In this document: one piece after another, positions 20,153 through 22,130 of the stretch
How positions within the stretch are numbered: position 1 is the first letter of the stretch
Layout of the letters: each line of letters begins with the position of its first letter
Virus record (IMG/VR): IMGVR_UViG_3300009127_000250
Location: 1-64,000 of that record
Strand: one strand, 5' to 3'
Source of the DNA: a virus
DNA length: 64,000 nt
Made by a program: the position numbers and the translations under genes
Notes under the pieces: model-generated
What the model saw: the letters and a program-made list of their open reading frames with translations, nothing else
Told to the model about the DNA's origin: nothing
Databases searched by the model: none

Positions 20153-22072
20153 ATGGACACTAAGCAATTTATAGACCAACTGTTCGGCCTCAAAGATGAT
20201 CGGACCTGGATCTTAACATGGGAAAAAGATCTCGACCCAAAACAAGGCCGGTCCAAATGGTTCCAAAGCCACCTGGAAGCCGCCGCTTATATTGCAGGTA
20301 AGCAAAATATCTACATCTGCGCCGGTATGTCATGGCAAAACCGTGGCAAATATAAAAGAATGACCGTCGATCAAGTTCACGGCATCCCGGGCTTCTTCAT
20401 CGATATAGACGTCCAGCATAAACACGCCCATAAAAAGAAAAACCTGCCTGCAACCATCGAAGAAGCACGCTCACTGATCGAAAGTTATGGGTGGGACCCA
20501 ACCATAATCATGCACTCCGGACATGGACTCCAGGCGTGGTGGTTGTTCAAAGAACCCTTGATGTTTGACGACCAAGATGAATGGGCAGAAACCTTGGGAC
20601 TTTCCCGCCGGCTACAGGCCACCATCAAAGAACGTGCCAATGAAAAAGGATGGGAAATCGACAACACTTCTAATTTAGACCGCCTAATGCGTCCGATCGG
20701 TACAGTCAATCAAAAAGAAAACTGCGACCCTGTCATGGCCACAGTGTTGCAGTATAACGAAAAAGTCAGATACAACCCGGATGATTTCGATGAAATCCTG
20801 CTTGAAATTGAGCCAAGCATCTCAAGTAACCTAATCTCAAATAGCGAGCCAATAACCCAGAGTAACCCTGAAGTCGTCAGCGAGCCATCAAGCGCCAGCA
20901 ACCCACTTGGGAAAAGCGAGCCACGGGGAGCGAGCAACCCTATTACGGATAGCGAGTCTTGTTCGGAAAGTAAACCAAAAAATACAAGCGCCAATAAGGT
21001 CGTAAATATAACCCAGGAAATCAAAGAAAAATCAAAGACCTTGGAACTTAACGAAAATGCTGAACCGTCCTTCGAAAAGTTCGCCGCTATCAACCAAATA
21101 TTTGCACCCGAATTTATAAACACCTGGAATAATGACCGAGATGATGAACTCAACGACACATCACCTTCGGGCTACGATTTCACACTGGCTTTAATGGCAG
21201 CCCAATGCAACTGGACAGATCAAGAGATCATGGATCTCATGATTGCGTTCAGGCGTAAGCACGGCCATGACTTACACCTGAGCAATATACAAAAGTACAT
21301 CCGGACGATCATCAATGCCCGCTCAAAGATCGAAACCGAAGAAGCCCAAAAAGCCGTAGATGTCGCCGCCGACCTTACCGGCTCCGATTATCAAAACATT
21401 GACCAAAACCGCAAAGCTGTCTGTAAACGCCTTGGCTTTCAAGATATCAGAATTCTGTGCTTCCCGGAAGATCCGCCAGTGTTCCGGCTGATTGTCAATA
21501 ATAAAAAAACGGAATTCCGAAGTTCAAATAAACTAATGGAATTCCGCCAGTTCAGAGAACAAGTCGGTAACTTAATTAAAAAAAGAATCGTATGCTCAAA
21601 AAAGGAATGGGATGACAAACTCGCAGACCTTATCATGTCAATAGTTGAAGATGTGCCTGTCGATGAAATGCGTACTGCAATCGGCATCGTTAAAATCTGG
21701 CTAAAAAAGTATCTCAAGAGCCGACCAAAATACCCAGTCGAAGAAGGCGCGCCCGACAACCAACCGTTCATCCATAAAGGCAATTGGTACATGTTCCCCA
21801 TACAGTTCGATGCCTATACCCGACAAACATGCAACAACCGAGACCCAAGAGAAATCCTGTTCCGAATATTGGAATTTGACCTTGGGTTATCAAAGAAAAG
21901 TATCAGCTACAGGAAAAAGACCGATAAAAAAGTAACCTCAGTTAAATGCTGGAAAGTCCCCATAGCAATAATCGATCCATCAAGAACACTAAACACCGCA
22001 CCGCAGGCAGAATCCGAAGGAGCCGACGTGGTACATCTGGATGATAAAAGAAACGCCGATAGGCATGATTAA
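20153..22072 (+). CDS. Primase/Rep protein (AEP/RepB-like) with repeat-encoded linker
   Basis: FIDID, HSGHGLQAWW, RLMRPIGT.N.K; SEP/SNP repeat linker. Confidence 0.75.
   Translation: MDTKQFIDQLFGLKDDRTWILTWEKDLDPKQGRSKWFQSHLEAAAYIAGKQNIYICAGMSWQNRGKYKRMTVDQVHGIPGFFIDIDVQHKHAHKKKNLPATIEEARSLIESYGWDPTIIMHSGHGLQAWWLFKEPLMFDDQDEWAETLGLSRRLQATIKERANEKGWEIDNTSNLDRLMRPIGTVNQKENCDPVMATVLQYNEKVRYNPDDFDEILLEIEPSISSNLISNSEPITQSNPEVVSEPSSASNPLGKSEPRGASNPITDSESCSESKPKNTSANKVVNITQEIKEKSKTLELNENAEPSFEKFAAINQIFAPEFINTWNNDRDDELNDTSPSGYDFTLALMAAQCNWTDQEIMDLMIAFRRKHGHDLHLSNIQKYIRTIINARSKIETEEAQKAVDVAADLTGSDYQNIDQNRKAVCKRLGFQDIRILCFPEDPPVFRLIVNNKKTEFRSSNKLMEFRQFREQVGNLIKKRIVCSKKEWDDKLADLIMSIVEDVPVDEMRTAIGIVKIWLKKYLKSRPKYPVEEGAPDNQPFIHKGNWYMFPIQFDAYTRQTCNNRDPREILFRILEFDLGLSKKSISYRKKTDKKVTSVKCWKVPIAIIDPSRTLNTAPQAESEGADVVHLDDKRNADRHD
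20807..20990 (+). repeat. TIGR-type array (5 units of 36 nt) embedded in frame in the primase CDS
   Basis: AGCGAGCCA-N9-AG(T/C)AACCC(A/T)-N9 with exact 36-nt period; same repeats as 35564-35992. Confidence 0.85.
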
Positions 22073-22130
22073 CCCCAAGAGAGGTAGCGAGCCAAGTGAA
22101 AAAAGAAACCCACAGAAAGATAGCGAAATA
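22068..22130 (+). repeat. TIGR-type mini-array (about 1.5 units)
   Basis: ATTAACCCC-N9-AGCGAGCCA-N9-AGAAACCCA-N9-AGCGA. Confidence 0.75.

Follow-up and report, generated by a model that had tools for sequence, protein, structure and literature searches.

In this work we ask whether a very short run of TIGR-type repeats, lying across the stop codon of a viral replication gene and far from the tas gene of the same genome, constitutes a genuine guide array, and what it might do at such a position. The window, by which we mean the whole stretch of DNA analysed, comprises 64 kb of a single virus record of 74,264 bp. Marine and seawater DNA metagenomes contain this record at low depth, and the runs that match the sequence of the short array (hereafter the mini-array) are DNA metagenomes only. 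Contigs of four marine DNA runs show zero differences at the mini-array site; one metagenome contig is identical across positions 21845-22165 and does not count as independent support. Nearly all genes between 8 and 52 kb are encoded on the + strand, and the mini-array shares this strand with the main array and with all of its neighbouring genes.

The TasA-like gene of the genome (34696-35565, + strand) encodes a protein of 289 aa with a Nop-type domain and no nuclease domain. In phmmer searches against solved structures it matched TasR (9mty_A, E = 2e-8) and TasH of the Salicola phage CGphi29 (21kl_A, E = 1.3e-6). Since its Pfam matches are limited to Transposase_20 and HhH, and include neither an HNH nor a RuvC domain, we classify it as a nuclease-less TasA. 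The earlier note on this DNA had assumed that a single Tas serves the genome, and tblastn likewise revealed no second copy of tas. A collection scan with the Tas protein alone returned zero relatives, and among GenBank phages only distant Tas matches were found, e.g. Ralstonia phage RSL1 at 39%. The main array (35563-35992, + strand) extends from the tas stop codon (TAAGTC) to a terminal AGCGA and holds about 11 units with a 36-nt period, each composed of the edge AGCGAGTCA, nine variable positions, the loop AGAAAYCCA and a further nine variable positions. In the same genome, 12,570 bp separate the end of the mini-array at 22126 from the start of tas at 34696.

The letters quoted at 22068 in the earlier note match the sequence exactly, and the 9-nt register in which they were placed is likewise exact. 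An overlap with the primase stop codon, similar to that of the main array with the tas stop, had also been described: the TAA at 22070-22072 of the ORF 20153-22072 indeed falls within the first loop-like 9-mer, the main array likewise starts at the tas stop, and both arrays close with AGCGA. The limits of the mini-array are revised here at both ends. The quoted string is only 59 nt long (22068-22126), and the last four bases up to the end originally given, 22130, are non-repeat sequence; in place of one and a half units, an in-register GCCG found 36 nt before the full edge makes two units likely. The mini-array is therefore probably composed of two 36-nt units, one degenerate and one canonical, spanning 22055-22126. 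In the probable leading unit (22055-22090, + strand), a truncated edge GCCG is followed by spacer A ATAGGCATG, the loop-like ATTAACCCC, spacer B AAGAGAGGT and AGCGA; it covers the final five codons of the primase together with its stop, with the TAA lying inside ATTAACCCC. Its GCCG (22055-22058) occupies the slot of a 5'-truncated edge, one 36-nt period ahead of the full edge, with a score equalled or exceeded at 1.3% of genome positions (p about 0.013), while its loop, which deviates at three positions, scores 4.5 bits, a value equalled or beaten by 0.5% of genome positions. We adopt the two-unit reading because both of these scores are rare genome-wide. The canonical unit, whose full 5' edge AGCGAGCCA begins at 22086, yields a predicted 36-nt tigRNA (22091-22126, + strand) consisting of GCCA, spacer A AGTGAAAAA, the loop AGAAACCCA, spacer B CAGAAAGAT and AGCGA, and lies outside any ORF of at least 50 aa. 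We infer the cleavage point within the edge from the truncated first and last edges and from published work (PMC12045711). The spacers B of the two units are identical at 6 of 9 positions, and the mini-array spacers match no other unit in the genome. An Rfam search of 21800-22500 gave zero family matches, and the fold of the mini-array region was not more stable than that of shuffled sequences (z = -0.43). A simple scan for intrinsic terminators on the + strand after the mini-array found none that was clear; a weak hairpin followed by a T-run lies downstream, at about 22190-22258.

The earlier note had proposed scanning a position weight matrix against shuffled sequence as a check. The 11 edges and 12 loops of the main array were used to build a matrix, under which the edge-N9-loop at 22086 scores 29.5 bits and ranks third in the 74,264-bp genome; with this matrix, true units score 23-30 bits, and the background reaches at most 10 bits on both strands, or 12.8 for a degenerate unit of an array inside the primase gene (array 2). 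The full pattern loop-N9-edge-N9-loop-N9-AGCGA at 22068 reaches 42.0 bits, against genome-wide maxima with a mean of -2.6, a standard deviation of 4.0 and a maximum of 11.7 in 200 dinucleotide shuffles scanned on both strands; no equally good match arose in shuffled sequence. A second, independent matrix, built to avoid circularity from 1,226 units adjoining seed hits in the arrays of other phages, places the unit at 22086 first in the genome, with 40.0 bits against a null maximum of 21.3, and this unit equals the family consensus AGCGAGCCA-N9-AGAAACCCA-N9-AGCGA throughout. The mini-array is a genuine dual-repeat TIGR-type array.

The wider family of arrays follows the same grammar. The mini-array repeats match the consensus of more than 100 arrays in IMG/VR, most of them beside Tas homologues. 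Among the array ends of other phages (n = 63), most retain only AGCG(A) of the last edge and then pass into AT-rich sequence, and the end of one array (L131) is almost identical to that of the mini-array. The mini-array and the main array end in the same fashion, the terminal AGCGA of the mini-array giving way to AT-rich sequence. Of the first edge, array starts in other phages usually preserve no more than the 3' portion (..G[CT]C[AG]), and the stop codon of the upstream ORF is very often embedded in this truncated edge, as TAGCCA, TGAGCCA or TAAGCCA. Many arrays downstream of tas (L114-L193, e.g. L184, L122, L132, L138 and L163) start exactly on the tas stop. The C and T variants of the edge, AGCGAGCCA and AGCGAGTCA, which differ at position 7, co-occur in single arrays beside Tas homologues, and because both variants mix in such Tas-adjacent arrays it is plausible that one Tas serves all loci of the present genome. 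Arrays of the same type were also observed at eight loci (L185, L150, L151, L149, L146, L141, L126 and L164) with no Tas detectable by tblastn in the fetched stretch, among them a 14.5-kb locus (L185) with 30-35 array units.

The gene on whose stop codon the mini-array lies (20153-22072, + strand) encodes a primase-polymerase-like protein of 639 aa, which matched the PHROG family 'DNA polymerase/primase' over residues 50-251 (E = 1e-11); a Pfam search of the protein gave no match. Matrix scans identified five further units within this gene (array 2, 20807-20990, + strand), in frame within the linker of the protein, such that in translation the edge reads Ser-Glu-Pro and the loop Ser-Asn-Pro, recurring every six residues. 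Array 2 and the mini-array have the C-variant edge AGCGAGCCA in common. Two primase homologues (P0002 and P0003, with 61% and 49% identity) show the same alternating six-residue pattern in the same place, with differing intervening 'spacer' residues and numbers of units, and homologues of at most 45% identity are without an intragenic array. From this distribution it follows that units were gained at a new locus within this lineage, in which the primase transcript is, on the sequences of these two homologues, a conserved carrier of units. The primase, used as query either by itself or in an alignment, was scanned against collections of viral, metagenome and genome sequences; the relatives found had at most 51% identity over the best segment and no such arrays, and none of the GenBank phages was close to the primase. 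The intergenic region between the primase and helicase genes (22131-22437) contains AT-rich runs and GACTACA repeats in both orientations, and the cumulative GC skew reaches its minimum at about 22.0 kb; these features are suggestive of a replication origin, which this region may represent.

Guide units in this genome are more dispersed than the three loci of the earlier note, and we count four. A scan with the grammar G[CT]CA-N9-loop-N9-AGCG revealed a solitary unit at 41402 whose score of 27.4 bits exceeds the null maximum of 21.5. This possible fourth locus (41406-41441, + strand; GTCA-N9-AGAAAACCA-N9-AGCG) is without full edges and lies within the 3' end of the ORF 40570-41490, about 500 bp upstream of a ParB-like gene (41959-43686); it is likely to be a solitary guide unit. 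An association of ParB with TasA loci has been mentioned previously (PMC12045711). To gauge the generality of such dispersal, ten further tas-bearing viral contigs were scanned whole. Seven of the ten contain one long array, confined to one locus; in an eighth, a mini-array of two units about 600 nt from tas is all that is present, and another has a single broken run of clusters. The remaining contig, a complete 106-kb phage (L184/L231) whose Tas is 50% identical, carries a remote array of 11 units 5.2 kb from tas (L231 2195-2581) and two solitary units (about 5735-5779 and 13861-13905, minus strand), one of which lies 12 nt past the stop of an ORF. A 7-bp stem closes each of the solitary units, AAGGGGC/GCCCCTT in one and AGGGGGC/GCCCCCT in the other, with the loop unchanged, and this phage mixes dual-repeat and stem-closed designs. 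The earlier note had further proposed an unknown mechanism of unit insertion or acquisition, a conjecture on its part; simple tandem duplication as the mode of array growth found no support, adjacent units being no more alike than distant ones both here and in 51 other arrays.

We consider it moderately probable that the mini-array is a minimal guide array that is transcribed together with the primase gene and whose RNA is processed in trans by the single TasA. Because it starts inside the last primase codons, the mini-array has no room for a promoter of its own, and since a search of the + strand upstream, within 19300-22100, also found no promoter-like site, co-transcription with the primase is the simplest reading. 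The mini-array would then form the 3' tail of the primase transcript, which would also carry the five in-frame units of array 2. TasA, encoded 12.6 kb downstream, would bind edge and loop through their box motifs, cut inside the edge repeats by means of a C-terminal Tyr/His pair and retain the 36-nt tigRNA of the canonical unit (22091-22126). In SpTasH, precursor cleavage is carried out by Y289 and H296 (PMC13421893); Y276 of the present TasA aligns with the catalytic Y289, H285 lies two residues past the position of H296, and the resulting Y-x8-H motif at the C-terminus is kept in about 30 relatives. Very small arrays can be processed, in that engineered arrays of one to three units gave 36-nt tigRNAs when Tas was supplied (PMC12045711, Fig. 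2). The guide may direct DNA binding, and hence blocking or repression, with spacer A pairing with one strand and spacer B with the other; we favour binding as its role because this TasA is without a nuclease domain. TasA proteins have been described as RNA-guided transcription repressors (10.64898/2026.09.09.750476). Co-transcription, processing in trans, guide function and target of the mini-array are all matters that we infer from sequence. Searches with the mini-array guides against the own genome gave best matches with 3 mismatches in 18, which is at chance level, and among 2.1 Mb of fetched loci the spacers had 16 matches with at most 2 mismatches, compared with 17 for reversed-spacer controls.

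A purine-rich region and a short motif might invite the view that the mini-array resembles TIGR repeats by chance or owes its form to constraints of coding or composition, but the score of 42 bits where shuffled sequence reached 11.7 at most, that of 40 bits under the independent matrix (null maximum 21.3), and the position of the canonical unit outside any ORF of at least 50 aa reduce this view to a negligible likelihood, and the shuffle controls rule out chance resemblance as such. An old, decaying relic is also disfavoured, because the scores are far above chance with two matrices and the locus holds the most canonical unit in the genome. A recent and unused offshoot is a more serious alternative, if in our judgement a doubtful one: the mini-array might be an ectopic copy, for example of array 2, which lies 1.1 kb upstream, produced by recombination or replication slippage and persisting, young and harmless, in the 3' untranslated stretch with no working guide. 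The C-variant edge common to the mini-array and array 2, the presence of only one or two units, the match between the spacers B of its two units at 6 of 9 positions, the target searches of the own genome and fetched loci, which found none, and the solitary unit at 41402, which in its lack of full edges resembles a stray copy, would all fit such an origin. However, the canonical unit agrees with the family consensus wherever the latter is conserved and outscores every other unit of the genome with the independent matrix. It is not a plain copy either, as its spacers recur in none of the other units of this genome, and both the start and the end of the mini-array obey the grammar of complete arrays.

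It is also conceivable, though we hold it to be unlikely, that the repeats act in cis as a processing site and are not a source of guides. TasA binding and cleavage at the edge repeats would then shorten the primase message at its 3' end and, at array 2, cut it internally, so that primase expression falls as TasA accumulates and the released RNA is a by-product. That one replication gene, next to the likely origin, has units within its coding sequence and others at its stop codon is consistent with such a role, as is the putative Y/H processing motif of TasA, and it has been proposed that, where units are intragenic, maturation of the tigRNA may be tied to translation of the gene that harbours them (10.64898/2026.09.09.750476). 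This reading is nevertheless purely inferential and is compatible with guide function, and the spacer residues of the intragenic array vary between homologues, as expected for guides. A broader and rather improbable proposal joins cis cleavage with the preferred reading of a co-transcribed guide array. Here this phage lineage would employ the primase transcript as a second guide platform, on which cuts by TasA, at units within the coding sequence and at the stop codon, both release guides and destroy the primase message. The outcome would be an RNA-level switch that connects the replication module and the adjoining origin with the RNA-guided repressor, and solitary units elsewhere, such as that at 41402 near a ParB-like gene, would belong to the dispersed network.

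Among known systems, the mini-array most directly invites comparison with the dual-repeat TIGR-TasA system of Flavonifractor plautii (FpTIGR; PMC12045711), with which it shares alternating 9-nt edges and loops, 9-nt spacers, a 36-nt period, truncated first and last edges and a nuclease-less Nop-domain Tas in the same genome. It differs in comprising one or two units, against 5-15 in the arrays of that system, and in lying 12.6 kb from tas on the stop codon of a primase gene, whereas dual-repeat TIGR-TasA arrays adjoin tas; unlike typical dual-repeat TIGR arrays, it is also without a clear terminator. Published arrays either adjoin tas or sit inside it (PMC12045711; 10.64898/2026.09.09.750476). 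The latter arrangement, in which tigRNA units such as those of BlTasA lie within the tas coding sequence (Xu et al. 2026, 10.64898/2026.09.09.750476), resembles the present locus in that a protein-coding gene is overlapped without being broken and co-transcription with this host gene is suspected. The host gene here is, in contrast, a primase-polymerase in place of tas, and the units are dual-repeat, whereas those of the BlTasA type are stem-loop (10.64898/2026.09.09.750476). The survey of Xu et al. covered up to 10 kb either side of tas, a range from which the mini-array locus is out of reach (10.64898/2026.09.09.750476). The engineered minimal arrays noted above are also very small and have a full edge, but they are synthetic and plasmid-borne (PMC12045711), whereas the mini-array is natural and its last edge truncated. 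The 106-kb phage has the same edge and loop consensus and likewise possesses remote and solitary units; its solitary units are stem-closed, however, whereas the mini-array unit is not, and no replication gene accompanies them.

A parallel outside TIGR systems is provided by orphan mini-CRISPR arrays and solitary repeats in viruses, which are tiny, have their effector distant or absent and are thought to be served in trans. They are likewise tiny guide arrays on a mobile element, but in repeat grammar, effector family and the two-strand, split-spacer mode of targeting the mini-array is unrelated to them.

The locus bears on how TIGR arrays originate and grow, and on what natural role their guides play. 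The occurrence of a canonical array of one to two units far from tas indicates that a genome can acquire guide units at new loci, and surveys confined to tas neighbourhoods will undercount guides. The placement of the mini-array in the replication module, beside a probable origin, further suggests a regulatory link.

Two additional observations concern the main array. In a contig of one metagenome run (X1), the last main-array unit (window positions about 35970-36004) is a variant with changes in spacer B and in letters of the loop, which indicates a co-occurring strain with a diverged main-array end. For unit 6 of the main array (edge at 35772), positions 36973-36991 of the same genome offer a near-perfect two-strand match, in which spacer B, as its reverse complement, is followed after a gap of 1 nt by spacer A with one mismatch. 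With all units and geometries taken into account, chance is estimated at about 0.01. The matched positions are part of a promoter-like stretch and precede the ATG at 37029 by about 40-55 nt.
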